This document shows positions 1 through 45,437 of a DNA stretch of 64,000 nucleotides, piece by piece. The stretch spans positions 7,040,001-7,104,000 of the forward strand of contig CM000151.3 in the NCBI GenBank assembly GCA_000004695.1. The letters run 5' to 3'. Numbering within the stretch: the stretch's first letter is position 1; the number at the start of each line of letters is the position of its first letter. This DNA is from Dictyostelium discoideum. Lineage: Eukaryota. A program made the position numbers and the translations under genes. The notes beneath the pieces are model-generated. The model did not search any database, had not been told where the DNA came from, and saw only the letters and a list, made by a program, of their open reading frames with translations.

Positions 1-243
1 ATGACAAAAATTAAAATTGGTCAATGCCATTGGAAAATGATTTTTTTTTTTTTTTTTTTTTTTTATATATCTATTGTTTGTGAATGTAAATGAAGAAATT
101 ATTAAATAACAGTTACCAATTTCAAATCAAATTGGTATTCAGAATTTGGTTATTTTCCATTTTTTTATTTTAATTTATTTTAAAATAATCTAAAACAATA
201 AAAAAAAAAAAAAAAAAAAAAATTTTTCTGTTTTTAAATTATC

Positions 244-279
<36 letters not shown>

Positions 280-400
280 AAAATAATTAAAAATAATATT
301 AAGAAAATTAAGGATTTAATATGTTTTTGAAAAAAGAAAAAAAATGGGTGGAGTGAATCTTTTTTGATTGAAAAATTATTATTATTCGAAATTAATAATT

Positions 401-1141
401 TTAGAGGGTTTTTGGAAATCTTTTAAGTAATGATTTTAATTTTGGTTGAGATATAATAGGAGAATTTAAACAAATACTTGGTAATTGGAAGTTTGATGAA
501 TCAGCAGATGGTTCGTAATAGTAAAAGTTGGTTAATGAATTACCACTTGGTGTGCCATTAGTATTTTGAGCAGATGCAGAGATCAATGAACAATCGGATT
601 TATCAACAAAGAGATATTGATTTGTACTGTTACCCAAAATGCTTGGATACATAAACAAATCACATTCGACTGAACCTATTTCAGCATCACTAACATACTT
701 TAAATTTTCAAAGACTGGAACAGAGTATGTTAATGTCTCTAAGAAACAATATTCATTTCCGTTTAATTCAATATTAACATATTGAGTATTATTTCCATTG
801 AAACCCCAAAGTTTACCTTTAGTTACAGAGTTTTCAGTATCCATTTCAAAATCAACATACAATTGTCCACCAACAAAATCAATATCAACTGTACCAGATT
901 CCATATAAGAAGTTTGAGTAATGTCTCCGTTTGAAGTTGGAGTATTTGCATTAAAAGCTATTTGGACAAATGAAGTTGAATAACCAGTTGGAAAGTTAGA
1001 ACTTGATGTAAAACATTGTTGTTGGCCAACTTTATTTTCAAGTTTCGAATAATCAACATTATTATTTACACCCAATTTAAGGGATTCACCACAATTGAAT
1101 GCAATTGTAAATAATAAAATTAAAGATAATAATAATTTCAT
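401..1141 (-). CDS. Secreted hypothetical protein, paralog 1 (246 aa). Signal peptide MKLLLSLILLFTIAFNC; Cys- and Asn-rich with several N-x-S/T sequons.
   Basis: Uninterrupted ORF with A-rich context before the ATG. Near-identical to paralog 2; variation concentrates in the last ~20 codons. Confidence 0.6.
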   Translation of the reverse strand: MKLLLSLILLFTIAFNCGESLKLGVNNNVDYSKLENKVGQQQCFTSSSNFPTGYSTSFVQIAFNANTPTSNGDITQTSYMESGTVDIDFVGGQLYVDFEMDTENSVTKGKLWGFNGNNTQYVNIELNGNEYCFLETLTYSVPVFENLKYVSDAEIGSVECDLFMYPSILGNSTNQYLFVDKSDCSLISASAQNTNGTPSGNSLTNFYYYEPSADSSNFQLPSICLNSPIISQPKLKSLLKRFPKTL

Positions 1142-1686
1142 TTTAATGATTTTTTAATTTTTTTAATTATTTGTTTTGGGAAATATATTTTTTAATTATA
1201 TGTTTTGTAAATATTGATTGATTTTAATAATTTAATTTTTTTTTTTTTTTAATTTATACAAAAATTTTATTAATTATTTGTTTTTATTTTATTATTTTTT
1301 TCATTTTTTTTTTTTTGTTTTTTACTTTAATTTTCAGTTTTCATTTGAAAATCGCAAAACTAAAACGATTTTTCTTTAGAATTAACCAGATCCGGTTGTG
1401 ATTTGAAATTTTAAATAAATTAAATGATAATTAGGTTACAACATAAAATCATAAATATCACAACATTACATCTTTTTTCAAACAAGATTTTATTATTTTT
1501 TTTTTTTTAAAAAATAAATTAAATGAAACAACACAAATTTCAGTTTTTTTTTTTTTTTTTTTAAAAATTATTTTTTTATTCTTTTTTTTAATTTAAAATC
1601 TTTGGTCGGTCCATTTTTAATAAATAAGTTTTTTTTTTATGATTCGTTCTTTAAATAAATTTTCAAATGGTTTTTTTTTTTTTTTT

Positions 1687-1946
1687 TTAATAGTTTACAA
1701 AGTTTGGTCTTGTAAAGAATGTTGTTGAACTCTTATTTGAAACAGTATTACATGTTAAATCGAATGAATTTAAATTAGAATCATTTGATAATAATGATTT
1801 TGATGATGAAACATTTGATGATTTATTTGATAATGAAATAATTGATTCTAAAAATAAATAAAAATAATAATTAATTAGTAATTTGTTTTTTAATTTTTAC
1901 TTTTTTTTTTTTTTTTTTTTTTAAAAAAATACATACTGAATAACAT
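1687..1946 (-). CDS. Small-family gene A. Exon 1 1937..1946 (ATGTTATTCA), intron with GTATGT donor, exon 2 1687..1847. Product MLFKSIISLSNKSSNVSSSKSLLSNDSNLNSFDLTCNTVSNKSSTTFFTRPNFVNY.
   Basis: Hand-derived splice with frame check. Conserved 10-nt exon 1 and conserved C-terminal FFTRPNFVNY. Conserved promoter module at 1950-2250 on the minus strand. Confidence 0.6.
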
Positions 1947-2852
1947 TTTTTTTTTTATAGGTTTATTTAAATAATTTTATTTTTTTATATTAATAATTAA
2001 TTTTTATTTTGGAATAAATGAAAAAAAAAAAATTCTATTTATACTTTTTTTTTTTTTTTTTTATATCACCACCAAATAATTACCCCATTTTTAACCACAA
2101 CCAAACACTAAAACAAAAGATAATTATTTTTTATTTTGTAAAAATTTATATGTTGACATACAAGTAAAATAATAAAGGAAATAAAATTTAATCAAGGAGT
2201 ATGATACTAACAAGCATAAGATTATGATTTTATTATCTTTTGATTTTAAAACTATATGTTTTTTAAATTTAATATATTTTTTATTTTTTATTTACATATT
2301 AAAAAAATATGATTCTATCATCATTGTTAAATTGATTTTATAAAATAATTGTAAACATCATATGAATCATTAAAGCCATCATTTTTACCTTAATTATTTA
2401 ATTTTTAAGATGATAAAAATTAAAATTCGTCATTATCATTGGAAAACAATTTTTTTTTTTATTTTTTTTTTATTTTTTTTTTTATTTCTTTTTTAATCTC
2501 TGTGATTGTTCGTGATTATAAATGAGGAGATTTTAAAAAACATCATTTTGTATATTAATGAGTTTATTCGACCACCCAAACACCTTTTTTTTTTTAAAAA
2601 AAAAATTTTCATTGGTTTCTATAAAAGTAATGTAAAAATTAACAAAAATATATTAAATAAACAAATGCACTAATCTAATTTTAAATTTAAAAAAAGTGAA
2701 AGTAGTAAAAAAAAAAATATATTTTTAATTTTTTATTTTTAGAAAATTTATATATATATTTTTAAAGATTGTTTTTAAAAAAAAAAGAAAAAAATGGAAT
2801 GAGTGAATCTTTTTTTGATAATTAAAATTATTATTATTCGAAATTAACACTT

Positions 2853-3593
2853 TTAGTTAATTTTTGGAATTTTGTTAAGTAATGATTTTAATTTTGGTTG
2901 AGATAAACTAATATGAGAATTTAAGCAAATACTTGGTAATTGGAAGTTTGATGAATCAGCAGATGGTTGGTAATAGTAAAAGTTGGTTAATGAATTACCA
3001 CTTGGTGTGCCATTAGCATTTTGAGCAGATGCCGAGATTAATGAACAATCAGATTTATCAACAAAGAGATATTGATTTGTACTGTTACCTAAAATGCTTG
3101 GATACATAAACAAATCACATTCGACTGAACCTATTTCAGCATCACTAACATACTTTAAATTTTCAAAGATTGGAACAGAGTATGTCAATGTCTCTAAGAA
3201 ACAATATTCATTTCCGTTTAATTCAATATTAACATATTGAGTATTATTTCCATTGAAACCCCAAAGTTTACCTTTAGTTACAGAGTTTTCAGTATCCATT
3301 TCAAAATCAACATACAATTGTCCACCTACAAAATCAATATCAACTGTACCAGATTCCATATAAGATGTTTGAGTAATGTCTCCGTTTGAAGTTGGAGTAT
3401 TTGCATTAAATCCTATTTGAACAAATGAAGTAGAATAACCAGTTGGAAAGTTAGAACTTGATGTAAAACATTGTTGGCCAACTTTATTTTCAAGTTTCGA
3501 AAAATCAACATTATTATTTACACCCAATTTAAGGGATTCACCACAATTGAATGCAATTGTAAAAATTAAAATTAAAGATAATAATAATTTCAT
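2853..3593 (-). CDS. Secreted hypothetical protein, paralog 2 (246 aa).
   Basis: ORF about 98% identical to 401..1141. The C-terminal tail diverges with an in-frame 3-nt indel. Confidence 0.6.
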   Translation of the reverse strand: MKLLLSLILIFTIAFNCGESLKLGVNNNVDFSKLENKVGQQCFTSSSNFPTGYSTSFVQIGFNANTPTSNGDITQTSYMESGTVDIDFVGGQLYVDFEMDTENSVTKGKLWGFNGNNTQYVNIELNGNEYCFLETLTYSVPIFENLKYVSDAEIGSVECDLFMYPSILGNSTNQYLFVDKSDCSLISASAQNANGTPSGNSLTNFYYYQPSADSSNFQLPSICLNSHISLSQPKLKSLLNKIPKIN

Positions 3594-4160
3594 TTAAATG
3601 GTTTATTAATTTTTTTTAATTATTTGTTTTGTAAATTTATTTTTTTTTATTTATTGATTTTAATAATTTAATACTATTTTTTTTTTTTTTTTTTTAATTT
3701 ATACAAAAATTTTTTTAATTATTTGTTTTATAATTAATTGTTTTTTTTTTTGTTTTTTTTACTTTAATTTTCAGTTTTCATTTAAGAATAGAAAAACTTA
3801 AATGATTTTTCTTTAGAATTAATCATCACCATTTGTGATTTGAAATTTTTCAAACACATATTTTTTTTTTTTTATTTTGAAAATAGATATTTTTAGATCT
3901 TTGGTCTAAAAAAATAAGTTGAATAAAAAAGCATAAAACAAATTGCTATGATAAGGTTACAAAATAAAAAACCTTAAAATCCACGTCATTATGTTTTTTT
4001 TAATAATAAAGTAAAACAAAATTACAATTAAAATTTTTTTTAAAAATAATTTTTTTTATTCTTTTTTTATTTTATATATATGGTCGGCCCTTAAATAAAT
4101 AATTTTGGTTAAATGATTCGTCCTTTAATTAATTTTGTGGTTGTTTTTTTTTTTTTTTTT

Positions 4161-4284
4161 TTAATAATTTACAAAGTTTGGTCTTGTAAAGAATGTTGTT
4201 GAACTCTTATTTGATACAGTATTACATGTTAATTGGAATGAATTTAAATAAGAATGATTTGAACATAATGATTTAGATGATACA
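4161..4284 (-). CDS. Small-family gene B, partial. The 3' part of exon 2 ends …SSTTFFTRPNFVNY; the rest runs into the N gap.
   Basis: Track ORF 4161..4490 has a family C-terminus. Duplicate of gene A. Confidence 0.5.
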
Positions 4285-4384
4285 NNNNNNNNNNNNNNNN
4301 NNNNNNNNNNNNNNNNNNNNNNNNNNNNNNNNNNNNNNNNNNNNNNNNNNNNNNNNNNNNNNNNNNNNNNNNNNNNNNNNNNNN
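4285..4384. other. Assembly gap (100 N).
   Basis: Run of n. Confidence 1.
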
Positions 4385-5343: not shown

Positions 5344-6442
5344 TTTTAGTTTTATAAATTTATGGTAAAGTTTATTTTTTAATATTTTATTTTTAGTAAC
5401 TTTGTTGAGAATGATAATTAAATTTTACCAAAAAAAAATTAATTTATACATTTTTATTTTAATTGCAAATCATTTAAAAACAACATATAAAAGTTTTAAA
5501 AAATTTTGTAAATTAATTGTGTTGACAACAATTACTAGTTTTAAAAACAATTTAATAAAAAAAAATTTTTTAGTCCTATCCTGATATTAAAAGACACTTC
5601 TAAATTTTAAAAATAGAATTAAAATTACCATTGTAAAAATAAATTATTCAGTTTCTAAGGTTGTTCAAATTATTACTCTTTTTTTATTTGGTGTGGTATG
5701 TGTTGGTGATAATAAAAATAAATAAAAATAAATAAAAATAAATAAAAATAAATTTTAAAATTAAAAATAAAAAACAATCAAACGAATAATATTAATTATT
5801 TATTAACAAACATTTACTATGTTGATTTTTTTATTAATTTCAAATATAAATGTGATTAATGTGGTGATTTATTTTTAACAATATAATGGTAATATAAAAA
5901 TAATAAAAATAATAAAAAAAATAAAAAAATAATAACATTATACGATTCCTAAAAATAAGTACATAAATAAGATAAAAAAAAAAACCAATTTAACATTTTT
6001 TAATTGAATTATAAATTAAAAAGGTATAAAATGAAATTACCTTTAATGATTTGATATAATATAGTTTTGAAAGAAACTATTTTTAGAAAAAATTATTTCA
6101 AATCTCTTCTTTTAAAAGTGGGGTGTTGAAAACATATATCTTTTCTTCACTAAAAAGTTAATTCTGTATGGCGACAACAATTTTTTATTCAATTTTTTTA
6201 CTGTTATATATGATTTCACCAGTTTTATATATATATGTACAAAAAAGTAAAGTGGTTATGGTGTTTTAAAAAAATCAAATAATTTAAAATTAATCGAATT
6301 AAAAAAAATAAAAAAAAAATAAAAAAAAAAAAAGTATAAATAGTTTTTTTAATTATATTAAAATAAAACAAAACAATTAGAAAAAACTAAAAAAAAAAAC
6401 GAAACTATTAAACAAATCTAAAATTTGAAAATATAAATAAAA

Positions 6443-25121: not shown

Positions 25122-25377
25122 ATGTTATTCAGTATGTTTTATTTTTTTTTTTAATTTTTTAAAATTATATTAAATGTTGTAGGGAATTTTCCATAAAATT
25201 TCACTACAGTAGCGTAGTGAATTTTATTATTTAATTTCACTACAGTAGCGTAGTGAAAAAAAAAAATCACTGACCTTAAATTTTTTTTTTTTTCAAAAAA
25301 CAAATAAAGTTTATTAAATTGAAATTTTATTTTTTGTTTTAATTATTATTTTATTTATTTTTATTATAATTATTGTT

Positions 25378-25410
<33 letters not shown>

Positions 25411-28329
25411 CAATTTTTTTTTTTTAAATTTTTTTCAATTTTTATTTGTTTATTAAAATGTAATTTTATTTTTTGTTTTAATTATTATTTTATTTATTAT
25501 TATTGTTAATTTTTTTTTTTTTTCAATTTTTTTTTTTTTAATTTATTTTTATTAATTTATTTTTATTAACTCCCTGAGTTGTTCAATTGCTTGATTTACC
25601 ATATCACTGTAAACACTGCACACAATTGAATTTTTTCTAGCTTTGTTACCTCTGGTGCATTTGATGTTTTTGCATTTTCCTTTGTATACAAAAAAGTCCA
25701 AATATAATTCGTTTTCTATTACAGTTTTTACACAATGTTGGTGAAATTGTTTTGATTTTAATTCTAATGCTTCTAACATCATATTTGAATTTTTAACGAT
25801 TAAAGCATCACCACTATTTACATATAGTACTTTGGCTGCTTTTTCGAGGAATTTAGTCAAATTTTCCTCTGAATCTAACTATTCTTCATTGCCATATTCA
25901 ATGGCTAAATTTCTTAAGAGTTTTATCGAATCTATTAATTCTTCGATCATTCTTTTTTTTTGAAATTTTTTTTTATTTTGTTTTTTCAATTTTTTTTTTT
26001 TATTTTGTTTTTTCAATTTTTTTTAAGTTTTATTTTTTTTTATTTTTTTTTATTTTTTTTAACAAATGTAATTTTTTTTTATTTTTTTCAATTTTTTTTT
26101 TTTTTAATTTTTAATTTTTTTTTTTTTTTTTAATTTTTTGTGTTGATTTGTGTTTTTTTTGTTTTTTTGATTTGGCCACTTGTTTTTATTTTCTAATTTC
26201 CCCATACCCCCTTCTATTAATTGCAACCAAATCAAGTTCTAATTTTTGTGTCCTTGTTGACTTTGTTTTTGCAACTTTTTTTGAAGGTATCACATTAACG
26301 ATTTTTCCTATTGATGGTGATTTGGAAGGTGATTTAAATGGTGATTTAAATGGTGAATTGGAAGGTGATTTAAATGGTGAATTGGAAGGTGAAATGGATG
26401 GTGATTTGGAAGGTAATTTAAATGGTGATTTGGAAGGTGATTTAAATGGTGATTTAAATGGTGAATTGGAAGGTGAAATGGATGTTGATTTGAGAGGTGA
26501 TTTGGATGTTGATTTGAGAGGTGATTTGGATGGTTTAGAATGTGATTTTAAAGGAGGTTTATTAACAATTGGTATCTTATGAGGACGGCCTCTGAGACGT
26601 TTAACAGTTGTTACTATACCACTACCAGATTGTGGTATAGTATATGATGGTATTATTTGCACTTGAGGTATTGGTGGTACTATTTCTTTTAAATTCATAT
26701 CCTTTCTCAAACAATTCATTAAATTTGGCGCTGTTGGATTATTATTTAAAAATGGGAGTATTTCTTCTTGTTCCATTTCATTATTGAGTTTGTGTTGAAA
26801 TGGATTATCGTTAATGATAGGTGGAATATTTGATGGATTGTTAAGAGCATCTTCCAAAACCCTAAATGGATCATTTTGTGTTACCAATTGATGCAAGTTG
26901 AAATTGGATAAATCCTTACCAAGATTTTTAATAAACTGAACCAGAAATTCAATAACTTTCCCATCATTATTTAAATAAAGACCAGAAGTAAAAGAATCAA
27001 TATCTTTTTGTATGTTTGGCGATGTTCTAAAAATATCAACTGTTGATTGTTTATAAAGAACCAACTTGTTACCTCCTACAAAACCAGAGTATAAACCTTT
27101 TTTTTGAAGGCTATTGATTCCATCTTCCAAAAATTCAAGTTTATAAAGTTGTTTAGTGTCTTCCTGTATTACCTTATGAATTTTACACAAAATCAATATT
27201 TTCTATTAGAATTAAATATAAAATTTGTTAATTATTACTGTTTCATATATTATTAATCTTTATGTTTTAATTACTTACATTATTTTTTTTAATTTCTAGA
27301 AAGAGTACAGTATCACCAACTTTCAATCCCTTTGGTGGTTTTGAATTCCATTGATTTTGGTAACTTGTGAGATTTTCAAGAATAATAGCTGTTCTTTCTT
27401 CTTTTGAAACATCTGAAACACCAATTGATTGAGAGTCTTGTTCTGATTGAACATTAATAAACAAAGGAACAATACCAACAGCTTGAGATGGTGTCATTTT
27501 AATTGTTCTTGTTTTTGTATTATTGTAATCATACAAAGCTTGTTTTAATAGTTCAGAAAGAGACCTAGAAGTACCATCAAGAAAACTAAAATTTATTTAT
27601 AAATGATTAATTAATAAACATATCGATAATTTATATTGTTCAAAATATCATACTCTTGTTGTTTTAATTTTGAGATCCTCTCCTTGATAGTTCGATTCAA
27701 TCTTTCTACCATACCTTGAGTTGTTGGTGTACGAGGAGCTCCATGTGCTGACTTGGAGCCTGGAAAAAGTTTTAGGAATTCTTTTTGGACTTTGTTTTTA
27801 AATTCACGTCCATTATCGCAGTGCCATACTTTCACAGAGTTTTAATATAAAAGTTACAAAACATCATATAAAAAATGATTGATACCAAACCTTTTATTCT
27901 ATTTCGTTGGCAAATGTCACACGTATCTACTGCATCAGATACAAAAGAATACAATCCCATATTATAATATTTAGTCTTGTAGTTCCCATAGGTTGCATCT
28001 CTTCCTATATGACCTTTATGCATTTCTTCCCAGAGTGATACCATTCTATAATCATTAATTACTTCTAAACACACTTCTTTTGATATATTTCTATCTCCGC
28101 CACAATTCATGACTTTTTTTTCAATTCTAAATAATTTTTCTTTTCTGTTTCTGTTTTTTATTGGTCAGAATTTAAAAAATGATTGTGTTATGGTAAGGAA
28201 AAATATTTACTCATCATGTAAAAATTTATAATTTTTATGTTTAGTATTTTCAAAATTATTATCTTCAATAAATTTTAAATAATTTATAATTTCATTTATT
28301 TTATCTTGTTTCATTTTGGGAAAATGAAA

Positions 28330-28364
<35 letters not shown>

Positions 28365-28837
28365 TGTTGGGGAAAAAAAAAAAAAATTTTGGCGCAAAAA
28401 AAAAAAAAAAAAATAAAATAAAAAAAAAAAAAAATAAAATAAAAAAAAAAAAATAAAAAAACTTAAATAGAACTAATAATCAAATAAAAGATAATAATTT
28501 AATAAACTTTATTTGTTTTTTGAAAAAAAAAAAAATTTAGGGTCAGTGATTTTTTTTTTTCACTACGCTACTGTAGTGAAATTAAATAATAAAATTCACT
28601 ACGCTACTGTAGTGAAATTTTATTGAAAATTCCCTACAACATTAAATATTAATTTTTTTTATTTTAATTTTTATATTAGAATCATTAATTTCCATTTCAT
28701 TCGAATCATCAGAAGTATCCTCAAACTTTGCTCAATTAAATAATGGTGTCTGTTTTTCTTCATGTAAAAGTGCAATTGAATTAAAAAGCAGTCAAACATC
28801 AACATTCTTTACAAGACCAAATTTCTATCATATTTAA
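25122..28837 (+). CDS. Small-family gene T. Exon 1 25122..25131 (ATGTTATTCA); the intron is split by the transposon insertion; exon 2 28680..28837. MLFKSLISISFESSEVSSNFAQLNNGVCFSSCKSAIELKSSQTSTFFTRPNFYHI.
   Basis: Exon 1 plus GTATGT lie 45 nt before the left TIR. Acceptor tattag lies 38 nt after the right TIR. Exon 2 is in frame with a diverged tail. Probably inactivated. Confidence 0.5.
25175..25320. repeat. Left terminal inverted repeat of the DDT-A-like element; contains two copies of the sub-terminal palindromic motif CACTACAGTAGCGTAGTGA.
   Basis: Reverse complement matches 28496..28641. Confidence 0.8.
25552..28313 (-). CDS. Transposase (retroviral-integrase-like; zinc finger, DDE core, C-terminal basic SPxK repeats), split by short introns. 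Exon fragments about 28214..28313 (possible first exon), 27832..28110, 27611..27835, 27267..27536, 26186..27196, 25552..25937.
   Basis: HKGHIGRDATYGN…CDICQRN (HHCC). WHCDNGREF…GAPRTPTTQGMVERLNRTIKE (rve-like). RGRPHK plus KSPSKSPFKSP repeats. Exact exon joins not resolved. Confidence 0.6.
26320..26530. repeat. ~15-bp tandem repeat (ggtgatttaaatggt-like, ~14 copies) inside the transposase 3' region. Encodes S-P-(F/L)-K-S repeats on the minus strand.
   Basis: Direct reading. Mirrored as GDLNG repeats in the antisense track ORF 26148..26582. Confidence 0.7.
28496..28641. repeat. Right terminal inverted repeat of the DDT-A-like element.
   Basis: Reverse complement of 25175..25320. Confidence 0.8.
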
Positions 28838-30520: not shown

Positions 30521-31149
30521 TTTTTATTTGTTTATATATTTTTTTATTTTATTTGATTTGATTTTAATTTTTTTTTTTATTGTTCTATTTATATTTTTTT
30601 TTTTTATTTTTTTATTTTTTTTTTTATTTTTAAAAAATTTGTTTTTCATTTTTACTTTATTTATTTATTTTTAGCACACTTCACTCTACACACTACACAA
30701 TAAACAAATAAATAATTTTGTAAAAAGATTGTTGGTGCCATTTTTTTTTTTTTTACTCTTTTTTAAAAATTTTAATGTTATCGAAATATAATATAATTAT
30801 AAAAAATAGATTTAATTGTATTGTTAATAATAGATAGTTTTTAATAGTAATTTGTATAGAATCAACATTTAATAAATAATTTAATTTTATATGTTGTTAT
30901 ATAAAATATATAGATAAAATCAAGATCAAATGAAGTGCATTCAATTATTTCATATCATTCAATTTCTTCTTTTGCTTAAATAAAAAAAAAATAATAAAAA
31001 AAAAAAAAAAAAAAACATGTACATTCAATGTATTATTTCATAATCCAATTCTATATAATTTTTTAATATAGGATTGCCATCATTAATTTTAAACCATTTT
31101 TAAATATAAAATTAACAAGACACATATATCGATATCTTTCCCAAATAAG

Positions 31150-31207
<58 letters not shown>

Positions 31208-32163
31208 ATCTTTAATCCAATTTTTATTTTATTTTAACAATAAACAAATAAAAATAAAAATATTGGTAATATAGTTAAATTTAATTTCTTTACTTAAGTT
31301 TTTCCAAAATAAAATAAAAATAAAAATTTTAAAAATTCTTTCATTTTTTGGATTAATTTTAAAAATAAAAGAATAATGGCACCAAAGAATTTCTTATTTT
31401 TTTAATTTTTATTATTTTAATTATTTTTAATAATTTAATAATTTTTTGGAATAAAGAACATCGAAAATATTGTGTTTAAAACAAACTATGAATCTCCTTT
31501 ATTGCATTTATATAGATATCTCTTTTTATGTACACTAATAAAAATAATTCTTTTACTTTTAATTAAAAGTTTTATTTGATTATTTAGACAATAATGATCT
31601 GATAAATTGAATTTTGGTTCATTTCAAATATAATTAAAATAAAAGGAAACTTCAATGGTCTTGTGGTGGGTTATTGTTTTTTTAGTGTTAGATTTTGGGG
31701 TTTATTTTTAATTTTTTTTTTTTTTTTTTTATTCATTTATTTTTATTATTTTTTTTTTTTTATTTTTAATGTTTTTTTTCATATTATTAATAAAATTAAA
31801 AACCTATCTATTAGTAAAAGGAATTTTATCAGCAATTATTAGGGACATCAAATCTCACCAATGTTCTTTTTAAAGTTTAATTTAACAACAACCCACAATT
31901 TACAAATTTTTATATGATCATATTTTAATGTTGAACAAATAATTATTATTATTATTATTTTTTTTCTAGAAGAGGGTTAAACAAATAAATAAATAAAAAT
32001 AAAAATAAATAAAAATAAAAAAAAAAAAAATAATTAAAAATAAAAAATCTGGTAAAAAAAAAAAAACTATAAATATTTTTTTTTTTTTTTTTATATAAAG
32101 CATTAAACAAATCGAAAAAAACTAAATTTTTAACTATAAAAAAAATTAAATTTAAAAAAAAAA

Positions 32164-33031: not shown

Positions 33032-33555
33032 TTTATTATTTTTTTATATAGTTTTTTTATTTATTTCTAAATTTAGAATTTTTGTTTTATTTAAAATGAT
33101 TTTTTAATTAATAATGAATTATTTTTTTTAAACTATTTATATTTTTTTTTTTTTTTTAAGTAAAAGTATTCAAAAACCACTTTTATCTGTTAAATAATAA
33201 AATTTAAAAAATAATTGAACAGATGTTGTCGACATACACACACTCTCAATATAAAAATAGTGTTATCACAAACTTTAAAAGAAGTATGTGCGAATAGATT
33301 TTATTTAATATAGAATCATAAAACCAAAATGATATTTTTTATATATTGATTTTAAAAATAAAAAAAGCAATTTATTATTTTTAATAAATGAAGAAATAAA
33401 TTTAATTAATAAATAAATAATTTAAAAGGGTTGGTTTAAAAAATAAAATAATTATTTAATATGAACCAAAATTAAAAAATGAATTAATTTTGAATTTTTA
33501 TTGGAATAATTGAGTATACATATATTTTTAATTGAATATTAATAAAAGTGAAAAT

Positions 33556-33655
33556 NNNNNNNNNNNNNNNNNNNNNNNNNNNNNNNNNNNNNNNNNNNNN
33601 NNNNNNNNNNNNNNNNNNNNNNNNNNNNNNNNNNNNNNNNNNNNNNNNNNNNNNN
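33556..33655. other. Assembly gap (100 N).
   Basis: Run of n. Confidence 1.
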
Positions 33656-33879
33656 ATGTCATCATTTGTATTTTTAATTTATAGTGTCATTTTTAGATAT
33701 TCTTTTTTTTTTTTTTCAATTAAAACTGAAATTGTATGTTTATATATATCAGTGTTTTATTTGAAATAAAAAAATAATAATAATAAATGAAGTAAAAATA
33801 TTCAAACCACTTGTTGATGATATCCATTATTTAAGTAATCATTGTTGAAAACATATATTTGATATTGTTGTTGTCAAAA

Positions 33880-34257
33880 AAAAAATTAATATGATTTCAA
33901 CAAGATTAATAAAATAGTTTAAATTATATTATTATTCTTGTTGATATCATTATCCTTGTTTTTTTGTTTTTAAAAACAATTGTCTTTACTTGTATGTCAA
34001 CATAATATTTTTACAAAATTTAAACAATTAATAAAATTGTGTGTTTATTAAATAGTGGTGGTGGTAGGAAGTGGTTGGGGTGGGGTGGTGGGAAGTGGTT
34101 AAATTTTACTTAAAATAATTATTTCGATTTAAAAAATAAAATAGAATTTAAAAAAAAGTATAAATACTTTTTTTTAATTTTATTTTTTATATCAAACAAA
34201 CATTAAATTAAAAACAAAACAAAAACATTAATTAAAAACTATGAAACTATAAATAAA
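33880..34257 (+). promoter_or_regulatory. Conserved family promoter module, example for gene Ia. Elements TTGTTGATATCAT, TTGTATGTCAACATAATATTTTTACAAA, a G/T-rich GTGGTGG block, ATTATTTCGATTT, the TATA-like AGTATAAATAC, and TTTTTATATCAAACAAA just before the ATG.
   Basis: Alignable with 37230-37583 (Ka), 40190-40606 (M), and in reverse complement with 1950-2250 (A), 33140-33330 (H), 35270-35460 (I), 38930-39070 (K). Confidence 0.5.
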
Positions 34258-34497
34258 ATGTTATTCAGTATGTATTTTTAATAAAAAAAACAATGAAAAT
34301 ATCAATGAATATAATATTAATTTAATATTTTTTTTTTAAATTTAGAATCATTAATTTCATTATCAAATAAAAATACCACCTTAAATTCATCTTTAATTTC
34401 AAATCAAACAAACAATGATTGTAATGAATTTAAAAATGAAATTACAAACAAAAGTTCTACTGCATTCTTTACAAGACCAAACTTTGTAAACTATTAA
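34258..34497 (+). CDS. Small-family gene Ia. Exon 1 34258..34267, exon 2 34346..34497. MLFKSLISLSNKNTTLNSSLISNQTNNDCNEFKNEITNKSSTAFFTRPNFVNY.
   Basis: Splice and frame verified. Exon 2 is identical to Ka. Confidence 0.6.
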
Positions 34498-34584
34498 AAA
34501 AAAATATTATGATAAAAACAATTCCGATAAAAAACTTGTACAAACAATAAAATCTATTTATTTATTTATTTATTTATTTTAAAA

Positions 34585-35189: not shown

Positions 35190-35705
35190 TTTTTATTTTT
35201 ATAGTTTTATATTTAGTTTTTTAAGATTTTATAATGTTAACTTTGTTCGATATAATAAATTAAAAAAAAAAAAAAGTATTTATACTGTTTTTTAAATCGA
35301 AATAATTAAGTAAAATTTAGATAAACACCCACAACCACCACCACTATAGCACATTTTTTTAAAAATTATGTAAAATGATTATGTTGATATACAAGTAAAC
35401 AGTAAAAAAAAAACAAGTATAATGATATCAACAAGAATAATAGTTTAATTTATTAACAACATTTTAAAAATATGTTTCCAACATCCATTTTTTTAAAAAA
35501 GGACTTAAAATTTTATTTAATTAATTAAAAAAATAATACAATAAAATTGTTTACAACAAAATTTAATTTTAATTTTTATGATTATTTAAAAAAGAAAAAA
35601 ATAAATGATAATTTGTAAAAAAAAAAATAAAAAATTAATTCTAATTATCTAGAATAATTTATTTTACAATAGTTTTTTTAATAAAAAAAGTTATTTGGTT
35701 GTTTT

Positions 35706-36119: not shown

Positions 36120-36219
36120 NNNNNNNNNNNNNNNNNNNNNNNNNNNNNNNNNNNNNNNNNNNNNNNNNNNNNNNNNNNNNNNNNNNNNNNNNNNNNNNNN
36201 NNNNNNNNNNNNNNNNNNN
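36120..36219. other. Assembly gap (100 N).
   Basis: Run of n. Confidence 1.
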
Positions 36220-37583
36220 ATAAATCATTTTATTTCATATTTATGTTTAAAATATGTACATGAAATCACAATAAACAAAACAACACCTATGTTTAATGAT
36301 TGTTTAAAAATTGTTGATTTAAGAAATGATTTGTATTGATTCTAATAAATTAAAATTTTAACCACAAAATAAAATCCTACCACAATTTATTCTTCCATTC
36401 CTTCTACTATACCCTAACCTATTTAATTATATATTCTAGAATTTGAATTTATTGTAAAATAGTGTTTATACTCCACCAACAAAAAGGATTTAAAAACTAT
36501 TTTAAAAATCATAAAGCTTTAAAACAAAATGTTTGAAATTATTATTTTAAAAGGTTTGGAAAAAAAAGAAAAGAAAAGAAAAAAGAAAATGATATTATTT
36601 ATTAAAAAGAAAAAAACAAAAAAACAAAAAAAGAAACAAACTAAATCAAAATAAACCAATTTAGAATATAATTAATTTCTTGTTTTTCTTTTTTTTTTCC
36701 AAACTTTTAAATTTAGAAAATAATTGATTTCTTGTTTTTCTTTTTTTTTTTAGAATCGCTGGTGTATTTATTTTTTTAATTATTTTATTTTTTGATTTTG
36801 TTTTAATTTATTTCTCTTTAATTTTACTTTTTTTTCGAGTTGCTGATAGCTATGCTATTTATTTTTATTTTATTTTACTTTTACCATTTCTCTTTTATTT
36901 TGTTCTTTTTTTTTTTTAATGAATTTTTTTTTTTTCATTGTTTTAAAAACTTTTAAAAATGAAAAAAAGTATAGGAAAAATGAGAATCATAAAAAACAGG
37001 ATGATGAATAAGTTTTGATCACTTATATTTTTTAAAATATAGTGCATTTTTACATGACATATTATTATATTTTTTAAATTTGAATTGAAAAATTATATAA
37101 ATGAAGAAAAAAAATGAAAATTAATTAATGATGATATCAATTTTAAAACAATGATTGTTGAAAACATACAATATTTATGATTTTTATATGGTAGTTGAAG
37201 AAAATTATTGATTAAAAAAATTATTATCTATTAATAAAAAGGTTTTAAATTATATTATTATTCTTGTTGATATCATTTTGCTTGGCTTAATTTTATATTA
37301 ACATTTAACTTTACTTGTATGTCAACATAATATTTTTACAAATTTTAATTTATTTAATTTATTAAATAATTGTGTGTTTATTAAGTAGTGGTGGAGGGGG
37401 GTGGGTGGTTGTGAGTGTGTGATTAAATTAATTATAACTAAAAATTATTTCGATTTTAAAATTAAAAAAAAAAACAGTATAAATACTTTTTTTAATTTTA
37501 ATTTTTTATATCAAACAAAAATCATTAATTAAAAACTAAAGTTAAATAAATTAAAAACTATAAAAAAAAAATATATTTATAAA

Positions 37584-37839
37584 ATGTTATTCAGTATGTA
37601 TTTTTTTTTTTATTTTTTTATTAGAATTATTTTTTAAAAATATCAATGAATTTAATATTAATTTAATATTTTTTTTTTTAAATTTAGAATCATTAATTTC
37701 ATTATCAAATAAAAATACCACCTTAAATTCATCTTTAATTTCAAATCAAACAAACAATGATTGTAATGAATTTAAAAATGAAATTACAAACAAAAGTTCT
37801 ACTGCATTCTTTACAAGACCAAACTTTGTAAACTATTAA
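37584..37839 (+). CDS. Small-family gene Ka. Exon 1 37584..37593, exon 2 37688..37839. Product identical to Ia.
   Basis: Splice and frame verified. Promoter 37230-37583 is paralogous to 33880-34257. Confidence 0.6.
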
Positions 37840-38736: not shown

Positions 38737-39601
38737 TTTAAATTATAGTATATTAATATAGTTTTTATATTTGTTTTTTTATTTATTTAATTAATAAAAT
38801 TTTTTTTTAATGATTAAAATAATTTTTTTTTTTTTTATTTATACTTTTTTTTTTATTTTTAGTTTAAACATTTAATATAACCCCCAAAAAACCACTTAAT
38901 AACACTAATAACAAATTTGTAAAATAGATGTTGTCGACATACATGTGTTTTAAAAATTAAAAGGTTTTTTTGATAAACACACACACATTAAAAGAAGAGA
39001 TTTTATTATTTTAATTAAAAGATAATTTTAAAAAATGTAGATATGGTATCAACATCATTTTCTTTTTGACAAAAATAAAAATAATTATTTTAAATTTTAA
39101 TTTTTAATGATTATATAATTATTTACCCGCTCATTGATCACTATTTTTTTCCAAATAATTGTTATCATCATTTTTAAAATCAATTTTCTTCTTTTATAAG
39201 TTTTTTATTTTATTTTTATAATAATTTTAATTTTCTTAAGGAGTATTAATATGGATATAATAACAATATAATTGATTTTTAAAGTAAATCAAGTAAAATA
39301 AAAATAACAAAATTTCTTCATTTACTTTATTTATTTTAAAAATAAAAAGGTTTTTTATTTAATTTTAAAAAATTATAACATCATCCTTTTTTAAAATAAA
39401 AGAAGATAAAAATGATGAAATTATTTTATTATTTTTTACTTAATGATGTATTATCTTAGGGGACATCAAATTGAGAAAAAAAAAAAAAAATTATTTAAAT
39501 TAAAAATTTTATTCTTTTTTTTTTTTTTTTTTTTTTCTTTCCTTAAATTTATATAAAAACTTAAAAACTAGAACTTCTAAAAATAAATAAAAGAAATTAA
39601 A

Positions 39602-39843
39602 ATGCTATTTGGTATGTTAAAATTAATTTTATATAATTGGTTGATATTTATTTATTAATATTTTAAATTTTAGAATCAATTAAATTAAACATAAAAATAA
39701 ATAATTCTTTAAATGAATGTTCAAATTTATTAATTAGTGAAAATAATAAACATTCATTATATATTAATTCATTAAATACAATTACAACTAGAAATCAAAC
39801 TAGTAGCTTTTTTTTTTCTAGACCAAATTTCCAATGTTTTTAA
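39602..39843 (+). CDS. Small-family gene L, divergent. Exon 1 39602..39611 (ATGCTATTTG), exon 2 39674..39843. MLFESIKLNIKINNSLNECSNLLISENNKHSLYINSLNTITTRNQTSSFFFSRPNFQCF.
   Basis: Splice and frame verified. The promoter does not align with the others. Confidence 0.45.
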
Positions 39844-40309
39844 AAATAGATAACTAATTGTTAATTTACATTAAGAATAATTGTTCGAATAACTCAATAT
39901 TTAATTATTATTATGAATTAAATCATTTTTAATTTTAGAAAAAATAATAATTTATAAAAAAAATAGTAAAAATAAAAAATAAATTATTATTATTAAATTT
40001 CCAAAATCATACTTCATTTTTTTGATAATAACAATAATAATTATTTTGACAAAAAAAAAAAAAAAAAAATTGATAATTATTTCTTTTTGATAAACAAAAA
40101 TTAAAGTTGATATCAATAAATTTATTAGCCGGACAATTATTCAATATATTTTAAAAAATCAAATATCTAAAATATAAATCTTGATTTTAATAAATGTTGA
40201 TATCATACATATTATTTCTGCTTCTCATATAAATTTAAAAATAGCAACATATTCAATTTACAAATATATTTTATTTTTCAATCTATAGATTTATCAATTT
40301 TTTATTTTT

Positions 40310-41016: not shown

Positions 41017-44000
41017 TTAACTATCTTTTTTAAAAGTTAAAAATTTTTCAAAAGAAAATTTGTTTGTACCAAATATTGATAATAAAACTGGTAATAAGAC
41101 TAAACCATGAACAGCTGCTAATAAACAAATACTTATATACATTTTGAAATAGTATATGATAAAGATTTCTGATTTTGAAAAAGCTAAAACTACACAACCT
41201 AAAAGTTTTGTGATAAAGATACCACTAAATATGTTTGCACCCATTTCTGATATTGCAAATTTAACCTTTTCATCTCTTGAATAATGTTTTGGTGATCTGA
41301 TGAATGTACTTGCAATATGAACGCAAAATTCTATTGATATACCAACAGCCATAATTAAATTTACGACAGAGATTGCATTCAAAGATATATCCCATAATGT
41401 CATGACGGCCAAAAGGTCAACAACCGTCATACCAACACAAAGTACAACCAATATTGAAACCAATGGATTCATTAATATAGCTAGTGATACGAAAAATACA
41501 CTTCCCAATGCCAATAAAATACCTTTTAATGCCACTTGTTTTATGGTTAAATAAGCTTCAAAGTAACAATAGAAAATACTATAAGTGAAAACTTGAGCAT
41601 CTGAATGGTCAGCCAAATAATAACTTGTGGCAAGTGCATTGATGAAATCATTTTGAGTTCTTAGAGTTGTATGATAAGCATCGAAACGAGTTGCTGCAAT
41701 ACTACCATCACTATTGAATTTTACATCACCAGTATATGCTAAACCTGCCAATGGACATTGATCTGTATTTGTGAAATTTAAAAATGCAGGTAAATACTTT
41801 TTAAATAGTGATGGATCGGGTCTACCAGATTTTTCCAATGGGAAACATTGTTGATCACAACCAGGTTCATCACTATTACAATAGGTACCATTATCGAATG
41901 CTGTACAACAACCGACAGTATTACTCCATTGTAACATATCATCTAACCATGATGAAATTCCAGGTGAAATGAATGGTGCATTATCAAATGTATTTATAAC
42001 TGAATTATTATTACAACCACCTACTGTACAAAATTGATTTTGAATTGATGGTATGGAGAAATCATAATTTCCTTTTACAACTATATACATTGGTGGTCCA
42101 ACCTCTAAGAATTGATTCATATTTGTGAAATAAGCTTGAAGATAAGAGTTTCTTGGTAGTGCAACCTTTTGATCTAAACCAATTGGAATTTGATATGCAT
42201 AATTTATTGAAAACAATAACATTGCAATAAAGAATATTATAATTAATAATTTTGAAATTGGATGAACTAAAAATGGAGCATAATATTTTGTAAATAATTC
42301 CTTTAATAATGTTGTTTTCTTTTTTGATTTCTTTTTTAACATTCTCTTTTTTGATAATGGTGATGATTCTTCATTATTAATATTTAAACCATCAACAACA
42401 TTTAATGCATCAACATCATAATTAAAATTATGAGCATTATCATTTCTATCATCATCTTCACCATTAATTAAAAGTGGTTCATTTTCAATTTCTTCTTGAT
42501 TATTATTATTATTGTTATCATTGTTATTAAGATTATTATTATTATTATTATTATTACTATTTAATTGTTGATCAATATTATCAAATGGATCATCTTCTAA
42601 ATCTGAATTATCACCATTTAATGATAAGCATGGTAAACAATCAACTCTTCTTGATTGTAAACGTTTTGTATCTAAAACTAATAAACAAGCGAATGCACTA
42701 ATTTGTAATAGGAAGTCAAAGAAAACTGCAATTGAAGCATAGAATGAAAATGCTTTTACTGCTGGCATTTTAGTTAAGGAACCTAATAGGAAAGCAAATG
42801 ATTCACTTAATGATGCTAATGCAATTGATGGACCAACCTTTGCAAGTGTACGAGCAAATGATTCTTCTGGTGTTGGCATTTGATGATGATTTTGATTAAA
42901 ACCACTAATTGATGATGATGATGATGATGATGCAACATGTAAAGATTCAAAAGTATTTACTAAAATGAATATATTATCAACACCAATGGCTAACACTAAG
43001 AATGGTATAACTTCACTAATGATTAGAGTTGCTTTTATACGTAGAATTGAACAAATACCAACAGAGATTATAATTGAACATGCAACTATACAAATACCAG
43101 ATAGACCCAATGCAAATCTTGAACGAATGAAAAATGAATTGAATCTTCTTGGAAATGGGTAATAACTACCTAAACTAAGGGAGATATATAAAAACATAAC
43201 GAAATAACTAACGATAATCGTTGGTATATCTGCATTACCTTCTCTTGCCAATTCATCTTGTACTGATCTTTGAGCATTGAATGATATTTCGAATGGACAT
43301 GAAGGATCATTTGAAATCTCTTGAATTTTATTTAACCAAACTTGTTCCCACATCATTGATCTATCAATCATTGAATCTGGATTATTCAATAGGAAAGTGG
43401 TGACAAATGCTTTTGCCAACGTTGAATTATCATTCCAACCACCCAATACTATCTTTGGATTTACAGGTACACCAGTTGAATCCATACATTCTGGTGAAAG
43501 TAATTGTGATTTACATTGTTCAAACCAACCAATTACATTATCCTTTTGTTGATTTAATTTATTTTGATCACGTTGAAAAATACCTGTTATACTCTCAACC
43601 AAACAACCACGTTTAGTAGGTTCAAAACATAATTGATCCAATGTTATAATCCTATTTGAACCATCATTAAGCTTTACACTTGTATTCTTCATTAGTTGTG
43701 TCTCTATATCAATTAATGATTTAAATAAATCATAATTGAAAATCGTTGATAAATTCTTTTGTTTTGGTATTAAAATTAATTGTTCAACACGATAGAATGG
43801 ACCGAAATGATCATCGAAATATTGTTTCTCAATTGCTGATCTACTATCTGGTGATACCCATAATTTTACTGGATCAGTTTCAATCTCTAATGAAATAATA
43901 CCAATACCAATACCAATTGTAAATAGTAAACAACATATTAAAACTATTATTGGTCTTTTTGTAATATTAATTCCATACCAATAAAATACTTTTTGAAAAA

Positions 44001-45437
44001 TATTTGAATAATTGCTACCACTATTATTGTTATTATTTCTATTATTATTGGTATTTTGAATTTCATCATTATTAACTTGTTGATTAATTATACCACCACT
44101 AATACCAAGTATTCTTCTTGAATTTCTATTTGAAGCTGTTTTATCAACAATTATACAAGCTAAAATTACTATTGATAATAACAATAATGTTATCATTATA
44201 TAAATGGATACACCCATTGCAAATGAACAATTCCATTCTTTTCCATCATCTAATTTCCACATACAACTTGCTGTTTTACCATCTATCATTTGATGAGTAG
44301 TTACAAATGGTATCAATACTGTACAAATGAATAAAATACCCAATATTATCATCATTACTGTTTTAAACTTTTTACCCTTAAAATATCTAATCTTTGATGA
44401 ATATTTAAATATTAACCAAATGCTAAATCCAAATAATAATGATAATAAAAATAATAAAAATGACCAAACTATCCAAATTGTTAAATGTGGTACTCTTAAA
44501 AAAAAAAAAAAAAAAAAACCAAAATATTAATATATATATTTAAAATATATAATAAATAATAATAATAATATTATAAATTTACTTACTCTATTAATAAATG
44601 AGTTTGAATGATTGTATCATTTAATAAACCAATATCTTTATAGGAAGGGGGAGGTAAACAAGCATCACGACATTGATCACAAGAACAACCTTCAGAACAT
44701 GGTACGATTGCATCATTATAACCTTCATTATTAAAAACCCAATTTAATTCTTTGAATGTTGGATTCACTGCAGAGAAAACACCAGTGAAGAACAATTGTG
44801 CAGTTGGAAACATTACACCAAATGGTTGAGCACCATTGGCATGTACATCTCTACATGAATTATATAAACCATTGGCGAAATCTGGATGTAAAACGAAATC
44901 GATGCTAATGATTTGGTCAGTTTTATTATCAACTTTAGTTGGTACCATAAATGATTTCTGATAGGGTGAACATGACGATGCACACCATAGATTATAAAGA
45001 TTAACCATACAACTACTACATCTACCAAATATACCACCCGCTACCAACATATTGGTTTGTAAGATTAAAGTTTGATTATAATTACAACATGATTCAATTG
45101 AATATTCTGGATGTGTTAATTGACATGTATTTGGTGCGATTTCCGTATTATTCTGAAATTTTAATATTAAAAAAAAAAAAATAATAAAAACATAAAAAAT
45201 AAAAAAAAAAAAAAAATAAAAAAAAAAAATAATTAATTTTTCATAGAAAATAAATATTTTTATTTTTATTAATAATAAAAAACTTACTAATGGTGGAAAA
45301 TCTTTTGCTTCAACAAATGAAGATGAAACGCCATACATTGAACAACCTAATGTTGTATTATAAGGGTAAGGTGATTGACATTGTATTATATTTATAATCG
45401 ATAAAAAAAAGATTAAAAAAACTATTATTTTATTCAT
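41017..45437 (-). CDS. NPC1 (Niemann-Pick C1)-like sterol transporter with N-terminal cholesterol-binding domain and sterol-sensing domain. Three exons: 45288..45437, 44587..45152, 41017..44494. About 1350 aa.
   Basis: NTD Cys pattern (CCNYNQTL…GRCSSCMVNL…). SSD GLSGICIVACSIIISVGICS…AIGVDNIFILV. 13-TM-like topology. Splice donors GTAAGT with acceptors TTTCAG and TTTAAG; frames check. Confidence 0.8.

Follow-up and report, generated by a model that had tools for sequence, protein, structure and literature searches.

The stretch of DNA analysed here (the window, 64,000 nucleotides (nt) long) is chr2:7,040,001-7,104,000 of Dictyostelium discoideum AX4, and it carries about 18 two-exon genes of a single small-protein family. 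The encoded proteins are 52–57 amino acids long and end in FFTRPNF(V/I/L)N(Y/F), and we refer to them as the FFTRPNF family. Each gene consists of a first exon, ATGTTATTCA, with an open reading frame (ORF) of 10 nt, an intron of about 70–140 nt and a second exon of about 150 nt. A profile search found about 25 members in AX4, nearly all on chromosome 2 and one on chromosome 3; members outside the cluster include DDB_G0282383 (on chromosome 3), DDB_G0275639, DDB_G0275641, DDB_G0275705, DDB_G0276001 and DDB_G0276467. The family also has orthologues in two further species, D. citrinum and D. firmibasis, and a single one in D. purpureum. All family members are annotated as hypothetical, and a Pfam search of the proteins gave no domain match. 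The subject of this analysis is the region 33880–34257, which lies upstream of one member, g11 (DDB_G0276613), its last base abutting the g11 start codon at 34258. This gene runs on the plus strand from 34258 to 34497 (exon 1, ATGTTATTCA, 34258–34267; intron 34268–34345; exon 2 34346–34497) and encodes a protein of 53 amino acids that ends in FFTRPNFVNY and has 100% identity to the AX4 “hypothetical protein DDB_G0276707”, the product of the twin gene g14 (ATG at 37584).

A sequence-only reading of this DNA had placed a conserved promoter module at 33880–34257, and the module is indeed present, ending at the g11 ATG. The order of elements that it described holds when 430 nt upstream of seven family members are aligned: TTGTTGATATCAT is followed by TGTATGTCAACATAA..TTTTTACAAA, a G/T-rich block, ATTATTTCGATTT, AGTATAAATAC about 100 nt 5′ of the ATG, and ATATCAAACAAA in g11, g14 and g12, and largely so in g1. 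The local base composition is less extreme than the figure of more than 90% A/T given there, with 13–16% G+C around the region and thus about 84–87% A+T. The region would comprise the promoter from which RNA polymerase II transcribes DDB_G0276613, together with the regulatory module upstream of it, an architecture that appears, whole or in part, in front of most FFTRPNF genes, and it probably belongs to a cis-regulatory module that has been kept by selection. The elements upstream of g11, among which the two that prove most specific to the family are termed Box A and Box B, are as follows.

33843–33854, plus strand: Box A, copy 1 (TGTTGAAAACAT), matching the TGTTGAWAWCAT pattern; at -380 to -430 in orthologues
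33891–33902, minus strand: Box A, copy 2 (TGTTGAAATCAT), the sole inverted copy among eight
33937–33950, plus strand: Box A, copy 3 (CTTGTTGATATCAT), the TTGTTGATATCAT of the sequence-only reading; conservation of 0.85 at -330 to -301 (12 genes, three species)
33991–34017, plus strand: Box B, made up of TGTATGTCAACAT, a spacer and TTTACAAA, with the family-wide core CAACATAATATTTTTACAAA at 33998–34017; conservation of 0.93
34039–34100, plus strand: G/T-rich block, TGTGTG then GTGGTGGTGGTAGGAAGTGGTTGGGGTGGGGTGGTGGGAAGTGGTT, with G on the sense strand; holds the published sequence p12 (34056–34075) and four half-site matches for G-box binding factor (GBF), and has a G4Hunter score of 2.08
34118–34130, plus strand: ATTATTTCGATTT, an element of the closest subfamily, with three exact copies (g11, g12, g14) and found also in D. 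citrinum class-I genes
34157–34176, plus strand: TATA box AGTATAAATAC then a T-run, the core promoter, among the invariant blocks in orthologue trios
34189–34200, plus strand: ATATCAAACAAA, a conserved element some 30 nt 3′ of the TATA box

The core promoter is of a familiar kind. The canonical Dictyostelium core promoter is a TATA box followed by an oligo(dT) run, and that of the family is the same, with nothing unusual about it: AGTATAAATA followed by eight or nine T residues stands about 100 nt 5′ of the ATG in nearly all members. The TATA element has 11 matches in the window where 3.6 are expected, and it lies at -75 to -129 in nearly all of the 29 gene models that were built from the window and from two syntenic clusters, one in D. 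citrinum (L001) and one in D. firmibasis (L002), both of which are followed by the same NPC1-like gene. Transcription from this TATA box and T-run would be predicted to start near ATATCAAACAAA (34190–34200), which is probably a transcription start or an element of the 5′ untranslated region (UTR). As for ATTATTTCGATTT, which had been counted among the elements of the module, the three exact copies bear this out for the closest paralogues, to which the element is confined; with two mismatches allowed it is barely enriched in the window (45 matches versus 30 expected). A scan for bacterial sigma-70 promoters and terminators, irrelevant to a Dictyostelium window, stayed at chance level.

A bipartite core shared by the family promoters

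The core that is common to the family is the bipartite CAACA-N(5-11)-TTTACAAA of Box B, which is asymmetric and is not a GTCGAC palindrome. An exact match to it stands at -178 to -362 in 22 of the 29 upstream regions, and these include subfamilies that lack the TGTATGT half (g4, g8, g9 and g17). Over the roughly 104 kb of the window and the two syntenic clusters, which represent three species with the window, all 23 matches to Box B lie 178–362 nt upstream of a family ATG and in the orientation of the gene, that is, the motif is confined to family promoters, and one of the 23 exposed a family gene that the gene finder had missed. When the spacer is allowed to vary a little more (CAACA-N3-12-TTTACAAA), the window has eight matches versus 0.53 expected, Box A (TGTTGAWAWCAT) has eight versus 0.21, and TGTATGTC-N0-3-AACAT has five versus 0.00, every one of them in a family promoter (8/8, 8/8 and 5/5). 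The last of these patterns reflects an extension, TGTATGTC, that Box B carries on its 5′ side in four subfamilies only, and that gives rise to a 13-nt form, TGTATGTCAACAT, and to one of 16 nt, TGTATGTCGACAACAT, in which 3 nt are inserted.

Box A is found in one to three copies per promoter, further upstream than Box B. Its reverse complement, ATGWTWTCAACA, has TCAACA in common with Box B, so that the two boxes present this sequence in opposite orientations (TCAACA/TGTTGA), and since both contain it a single factor might read both. Unbiased counting of k-mers against A/T-rich background tiles recovers GTGGTT, TGTATGT, CAACATA, TTTACAAA and AGTATAAA, with GTGGTT as the top enriched 6-mer in family promoters. 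The 15-mer put forward in the sequence-only reading stays at chance when three mismatches are allowed (8 matches versus 7.9 expected), and it is only the exact and spaced versions that reach significance; a whole-window repeat finder and a permissive self-BLAST were uninformative, being dominated by A/T low-complexity matches. Two members had been set apart from the rest, and both assignments stand: g16 (ATG at 39602), there called gene L and said to lack the module, has none of the motifs, and g17, there called M and credited with part of it, has Box A and the CAACA..TTTACAAA half of Box B without TGTATGT. Boxes A and B appear to be two previously undescribed family-specific DNA motifs; a literature search found these motifs and the gene family described nowhere beyond a paper on G-quadruplexes (G4) (PMC6511855), and a search for 12 other family gene IDs found nothing.

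Comparison across species shows the boxes as islands of conservation. Among the g15 orthologues of the three species (class K), the longest invariant block of the whole gene unit is a 30-nt block at -206 to -177, GTATGTCGACAACATCTATTTTACAAATTT, which is Box B, and invariant columns number 43 of 50 at -236 to -187 and 40 of 50 at -331 to -282, as against 32–41 of 50 in exon 2, 18 of 50 in the intron and 8–18 of 50 in the distal flanks. In an alignment of the g11-type genes (class I, 12 genes, three species) the window ACTTGTATGTCAACAT..TTTTACAAA reaches 0.93, with coding maxima of 0.94–0.96 and an intron at 0.69. The orthologue trios of g17 and g9 (classes M and G) keep the invariant blocks GCAACATATT.AATTTACAAA and TAACAACAAC..ACAATTTACAAATT, so short blocks are, across species, more conserved than introns and flanks. 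The distant paralogues g11 and g1 share 90% identity in the core and 79% in exon 2 and have no similarity in the 3′ flank (semi-global pairwise identities, which are noisy in A/T-rich DNA, were used only for this contrast and for that of g11 with g14). Finally, a solitary family gene of D. firmibasis (L005), 85 kb from the cluster and beside an HSP70 gene, has the same order of elements upstream, namely CTTGTTGATATCAT, TGTATATCAACAT..CTACAAAA, a GGGTG patch, ATTATTTTTCGAT (which is related to ATTATTTCGATTT) and a TATA box. That the islands persist in the trios, in distant paralogues and in the solitary gene argues for purifying selection on short cis-elements and against a recent block copy.

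The G/T-rich block and developmental expression

The G/T-rich block lies at -140 to -220, and its G-rich strand is the sense strand in every case. The GBF half-site is defined as (T/G)G(T/G)G(T/G)G(T/G) (PMC2257962), and family promoters hold 40 matches to it on the sense strand versus 3 on the antisense strand, including four in g11, five in g14, two in g12 and four in g15. At least two sense-strand half-sites are present in 11 of the 29 family promoters (38%), compared with 4.7% of background tiles. We put at about even the chance that the block acts as a GBF-type G-box, in which case binding of GBF would allow induction at the aggregate-to-mound transition by high extracellular cyclic AMP (cAMP).

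Published expression data fit this picture for part of the family. The columns of Additional file 7 of Rosengarten 2015 (PMC4403905) were told apart by their tab pattern, with the columns that stay empty throughout as a check. For filter development they place DDB_G0276613 under UP_Hr10_gradual, and the suspension list UP_Hr08_rapid holds DDB_G0276705, DDB_G0276697, DDB_G0276693, DDB_G0276643 and DDB_G0276613 together. Family membership is confirmed for two of these five IDs only, DDB_G0276613 and DDB_G0276643, the latter being g6. The suspension protocol used 30 nM cAMP pulses at 2–6 h and 300 µM cAMP from 6 h (PMC4403905), and induction of the kind expected under GBF, either post-aggregative or under high continuous cAMP, is seen for g11 and DDB_G0276643 only. 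The supplements of cell-type RNA-seq studies were searched for family genes, and nothing was found.

The family resembles, in its organisation, the sigN (hssA/2C/7E-type) Group 2 genes, which form arrays of inverted pairs on chromosome 2, have a tiny first exon and paired GBF boxes, are induced at about 10–12 h and are expressed in prestalk cells from about 10 h (Vicente et al. 2008, PMC2257962). The FFTRPNF genes likewise stand in clustered inverted pairs on chromosome 2, encode very small proteins, have a tiny first exon, similar promoters among paralogues and G-rich boxes of the GBF type, and g11 is induced at a similar time (10 h on filters). Membership in the sigN family was nonetheless rejected on protein length, composition, the TRPNF C-terminus and the exon-1 ORF: the sigN proteins have 87–89 amino acids rich in S, G and C, a 13-nt exon-1 ORF and loci at 0.82 and 2.24 Mb, whereas the FFTRPNF proteins have 52–57 amino acids, a 10-nt exon-1 ORF and loci at 7.04–7.10 Mb. 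Boxes A and B have not been described for sigN, and the analogy is one of organisation only. A second parallel is with GBF-dependent post-aggregative promoters in general, in which GT-rich half-sites lie 40–120 nt upstream of the TATA box, as they do here, and which share with g11 its rise at 10 h and after addition of 300 µM cAMP.

The promoters of ecmA and ecmB contain STAT-type elements with TTGA, and Dd-STATa sites consist of TTGA repeats. Boxes A and B have TTGA/TCAA in common with these elements, within TGTTGA/TCAACA, which is a lead only, and they differ from Dd-STATa sites in being longer (12–27 nt) and in having no TTGA repeats; a literature search on TTGA/STATa elements found nothing. 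The finding is a genuine cis-regulatory module, and conserved promoters of tandem families with GBF boxes are already documented in Dictyostelium.

Competing readings and a possible mechanism

Four other explanations of the block can be envisioned, and two of them would deny that its upstream elements are promoter elements under selection. The similarity might be no more than what recent segmental duplication, or gene conversion, of whole gene units has left behind, with upstream motifs that are unselected; the sequence-only reading had itself named flanks conserved equally beyond the promoter as the sign of this. Such flanks exist for the closest relatives: g11 and g14 form one 776-nt high-scoring segment pair with 82.7% identity that begins at -353, spans the gene and extends some 135 nt beyond the stop codon, g11 and g12 align over 484 nt, and between g11 and g14 the similarity of the intron (0.83) and of the 3′ flank (0.81) is close to that of the promoter, so this pair carries no information on constraint. 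The genes, moreover, stand in inverted pairs, which are typical of duplicated arrays. Among orthologue trios and distant paralogues, by contrast, flanks have diverged, and similarity collapses outside islands of 10–30 nt that equal or exceed the exons in conservation, as introns and flanks do not; the solitary gene 85 kb away retains the ordered elements, and subfamilies that are otherwise unalignable retain CAACA-N-TTTACAAA at comparable distances upstream of the ATG, so that duplication alone is a very improbable account. It is more improbable still, to the point of being hard to credit, that the block is part of a noncoding RNA (ncRNA) gene, the terminus of a mobile element or a replication or chromatin element. 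Some G blocks as read on the opposite strand (for example ACCCACAA in g12) do resemble the upstream element of Dictyostelium ncRNA genes, and the region 33797–34050 has weak inverted self-similarity. The elements, however, keep a fixed orientation and a limited range of distances relative to the TATA box and the ATG in all 23 cases, the window contains no Rfam family at the gathering threshold and no tRNA, and the edges of the units, whose boundaries enclose promoter plus gene, have no terminal repeats or target-site duplications. A reading of the C-rich strand as DUSE, the ncRNA upstream element, was rejected, as the matches are sporadic and Rfam gives 0 matches.

The other two explanations accept a regulatory function and differ on what carries it. 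The palindromic variant TGTTGTCGACATACA occurs exactly twice in the window, as had been noted, at 33224–33238 upstream of g10 and at 38929–38943 upstream of g15, and g5 has a version with one mismatch. If the functional site were the palindrome around GTCGAC, TGTCGACA, it would be a candidate for a symmetric dimeric factor; it is a perfect 8-nt palindrome in g10 and g15, and also in the genes orthologous to them in D. citrinum and in one orthologue from D. firmibasis, and the flanking ATGT/ACAT arms are likewise inverted repeats. This palindrome is created only by the 16-nt form, however, and is confined to two subfamilies, classes H and K; neither g5 (TGGCGACA) nor the D. firmibasis orthologue L002 8374 (TGTCGCCA) has it intact, and the largest subfamily, class I, conserves the non-palindromic TGTCAACA without drift toward symmetry. 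Dyad symmetry is not conserved across the copies, the 3-nt insertion by which the 13-nt and 16-nt forms differ would rotate the half-sites of a dimer, and conservation runs asymmetrically 3′ to TTTACAAA, the half that persists in subfamilies without TGTATGT. A palindromic site is thus unlikely, and of the family-specific transcription-factor site that had been suggested, what stands is the restriction to family promoters, the fixed orientation and position and the conservation in three species, while the palindrome as the conserved unit does not.

A G-quadruplex formed by the G-rich block, exerting control by its structure and not through a sequence-specific factor, is improbable as the key feature. 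Saad et al. 2019 (PMC6511855, Table 2) list p12, TGGTGGTGGTAGGAAGTGGT, at chr2:7074056-7074075 in the “promoter of DDB_G0276613” and p14, TGGTGGAGGGGGGTGGGTGGT, at chr2:7077389-7077409 in the “promoter of DDB_G0276707”; the two are identical to 34056–34075 in the g11 block and 37389–37409 in the g14 block, a match that sets the coordinates of the window on chromosome 2, and they are reported to fold into stable G4 in vitro (PMC6511855). The G4Hunter scores of 2.08 (g11) and 1.88 (g14) also exceed the value of 1.5 that was taken to mark fold potential. Only 3 of the 29 family promoters reach that value, however, and close class-I relatives of g11 score 0.60–1.44, keeping the GT-rich patch but not the capacity for G4, which therefore does not look like a selected property; Boxes A and B, in which conservation is highest, are incapable of forming G4, and the expression of DDB_G0276613 and DDB_G0276707 was not tested in PMC6511855. 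That paper treated p12 and p14 as isolated G4 motifs of “hypothetical proteins” and did not note the paralogous multi-element module; on sequence grounds the G4 tracts of g11 and g14 are expanded versions of the conserved GT-rich box.

Several observations count against the view that region 33880–34257 belongs to a selected module with GBF-type control. The sequences compared are related by descent, which inflates the enrichment p-values, so only the contrast between elements and flanks argues for selection. The single family gene of D. purpureum has related elements that are rearranged: upstream of it (L003 1100–1520), TGTATGACAACA stands in inverted and CAACAACAACAAATTACAAAAAT, at about -355, in forward orientation, and there are also runs rich in G and a C-rich box, CCCCCACTCC, adjoining the TATA box. 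About 60% of family promoters have one GBF half-site match at most, and g15 (DDB_G0276651), which has matches, is induced earlier, at 3–6 h in pulsed suspension (UP_Hr03_rapid, Hr05_gradual and Hr06_gradual; PMC4403905); in both respects the family is unlike GBF-dependent promoters, and GBF cannot explain the whole of it. Given that g15 precedes DDB_G0276613 and DDB_G0276643, which share the UP_Hr08_rapid list, the co-regulation of the whole cluster that had been proposed gives way to a family that is regulated in development but whose members do not all respond together.

With the module read as a selected promoter region, a plausible sequence of events is that tandem and inverted duplication of the genes carried it along, after which its elements would have been kept by purifying selection as the surrounding DNA diverged. 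Box B at -180 to -360 and the one to three copies of Box A further upstream would most likely be binding sites for one or more sequence-specific factors that tune or restrict family expression. We suggest, tentatively, that Boxes A and B might be the sites of one candidate factor that defines a private regulon of about 25 lineage-restricted FFTRPNF genes, perhaps with a shared 3′-UTR hairpin (see below) that would add post-transcriptional to transcriptional control of the unit. Few sites of Dictyostelium transcription factors have been defined, and the approximately 25 FFTRPNF micro-protein genes are entirely uncharacterised; a compact promoter (<450 nt) with a specific pair of motifs found across species and a G-box could serve as bait for identifying the factor and as a reporter for the cell state in which these genes are expressed. 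The published “promoter G4” sequences are also put in context, and as the G4 potential is itself not conserved, caution is called for in G4-centred interpretations. The result overturns nothing, and stands as a useful case of fairly ordinary gene regulation.

Other promoters and neighbouring features

The corresponding features of other family genes in the window are listed here.

37156–37583, plus strand: g14 module, with Box A at 37156–67 and 37265–76, Box B at 37316–42, p14 in the G block at 37389–37409, ATTATTTCGATTT at 37444–56 and the TATA box at 37476–86
35190–35493, minus strand: g12 module, with Box A at 35422–33, TGTATATCAACATAA at 35379–93, a G block, ATTATTTCGATTT at 35294–306 and the TATA box at 35276–86
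2035–2270, minus strand: module of the distant paralogue g1, with Box B at 2135–2162 and the TATA box at 2035–2045
33223–33238, minus strand: 16-nt variant TGTATGTCGACAACAT of g10 (DDB_G0276635), kept in orthologues
38916–38943, minus strand: 16-nt variant plus TTTACAAA of g15 (DDB_G0276651), with the 30-nt invariant block that is the longest in the class-K unit
6124–6179, plus strand: promoter of g5 (DDB_G0276621), with Box A at 6124–6135 and a degenerate core, TGTATGGCGACAACA, at 6165–6179
40195–40264, plus strand: promoter of g17 (DDB_G0276655), with Box A at 40195–40206 and the Box B core CAACATATTCAATTTACAAA at 40245–40264, without the TGTATGT half
30717–30734, minus strand: Box B core of g8 (DDB_G0276639), a CAACA-N-TTTACAAA match
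31886–31906, plus strand: Box B core of g9 (DDB_G0276637), a CAACA-N-TTTACAAA match with invariant blocks in the orthologue trio
5505–5524, minus strand: Box B core of g4 (DDB_G0276619), a CAACA-N-TTTACAAA match

Promoter and protein do not always go together. The D. citrinum gene L001 8039 (minus strand), when compared with L001 11442 and g15, has a g15-type protein and a g11-type promoter with the 13-nt Box B, Box A and ATAATTTCGATTT, which would indicate promoter swapping or recombination between subfamilies.

Nearly all family genes also have an element in the 3′ flank, 20–77 nt past the stop codon, with a stem of 5–7 bp (CAAG/CTTG, CATG/CATG or ACA.G/C.TGT) and a loop that starts with GGCCGA(C/A). 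It lies at 34518–34539 in g11 and follows the stop by about 33 nt in g10 (minus strand, just below 32787) and by about 36 nt in g17 (just above 40847); it is also found in the genes of the D. citrinum and D. firmibasis clusters, and it is degraded in the g11/g12/g14 subfamily. In an alignment of 19 sequences, 78% of cells pair, versus 64% in shuffles (0 of 500 reach the observed value) and 32–45% with slid partners, and five of the seven pairs have changed on both sides. The element may be a regulatory hairpin of the 3′ UTR, and its interest arguably equals that of the promoter.

Within the coding regions, exon 2 of g11 (34346–34497) and exon 2 of g14 (37688–37839) have 100% nucleotide identity, with introns, promoters and 3′ flanks at about 77–83%, which suggests that gene conversion took place recently in the exon alone, or else that synonymous sites are under constraint. 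The sequence TTCTTTACAAGACCAAACTTTGTAAACTAT (34470–34497 in g11), which encodes the C-terminus, is invariant at the same position in all members and contains TTTACAA and its inverted partner TTGTAAA; the heptamer is the same as the 3′ half of Box B, which could be coincidence or a constraint at the nucleotide level.

All three assembly gaps of the window, each of 100 N, lie between or inside family genes, at 4285–4384 (g2/g3), 33556–33655 (between g10 and g11) and 36120–36219 (exon 1 and promoter of g13), so the array is probably incompletely assembled and the copy number may be underestimated. In a second D. discoideum strain (L006, GCA_054859385.1, which matches 220–4281 of the window in part) there is a tandem array of at least seven g1-type copies, interleaved with ependymin-like and HSP20 genes, and four of the seven have an exact TGTATGTCAACAT upstream. 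This is more g1-type copies than the window holds, so copy number differs between strains.

Directly downstream of the cluster, at 41017–44355 on the minus strand, lies a large NPC1/Patched-like sterol-sensing gene, in a position that is kept in D. citrinum and D. firmibasis. At 25161–28655, inverted repeats of 283 nt (84% complementary) surround a G+C-richer segment of about 2.9 kb with an ORF at 27832–28110 (minus strand) that looks integrase-like by eye and two palindromic copies of TTCACTACGCTACTGTAGTGAAATT at about 28559–28618. The segment adjoins g6, in which neither exon 1 nor a normal promoter can be recognised, and it appears to be a transposable-element insertion beside that gene.

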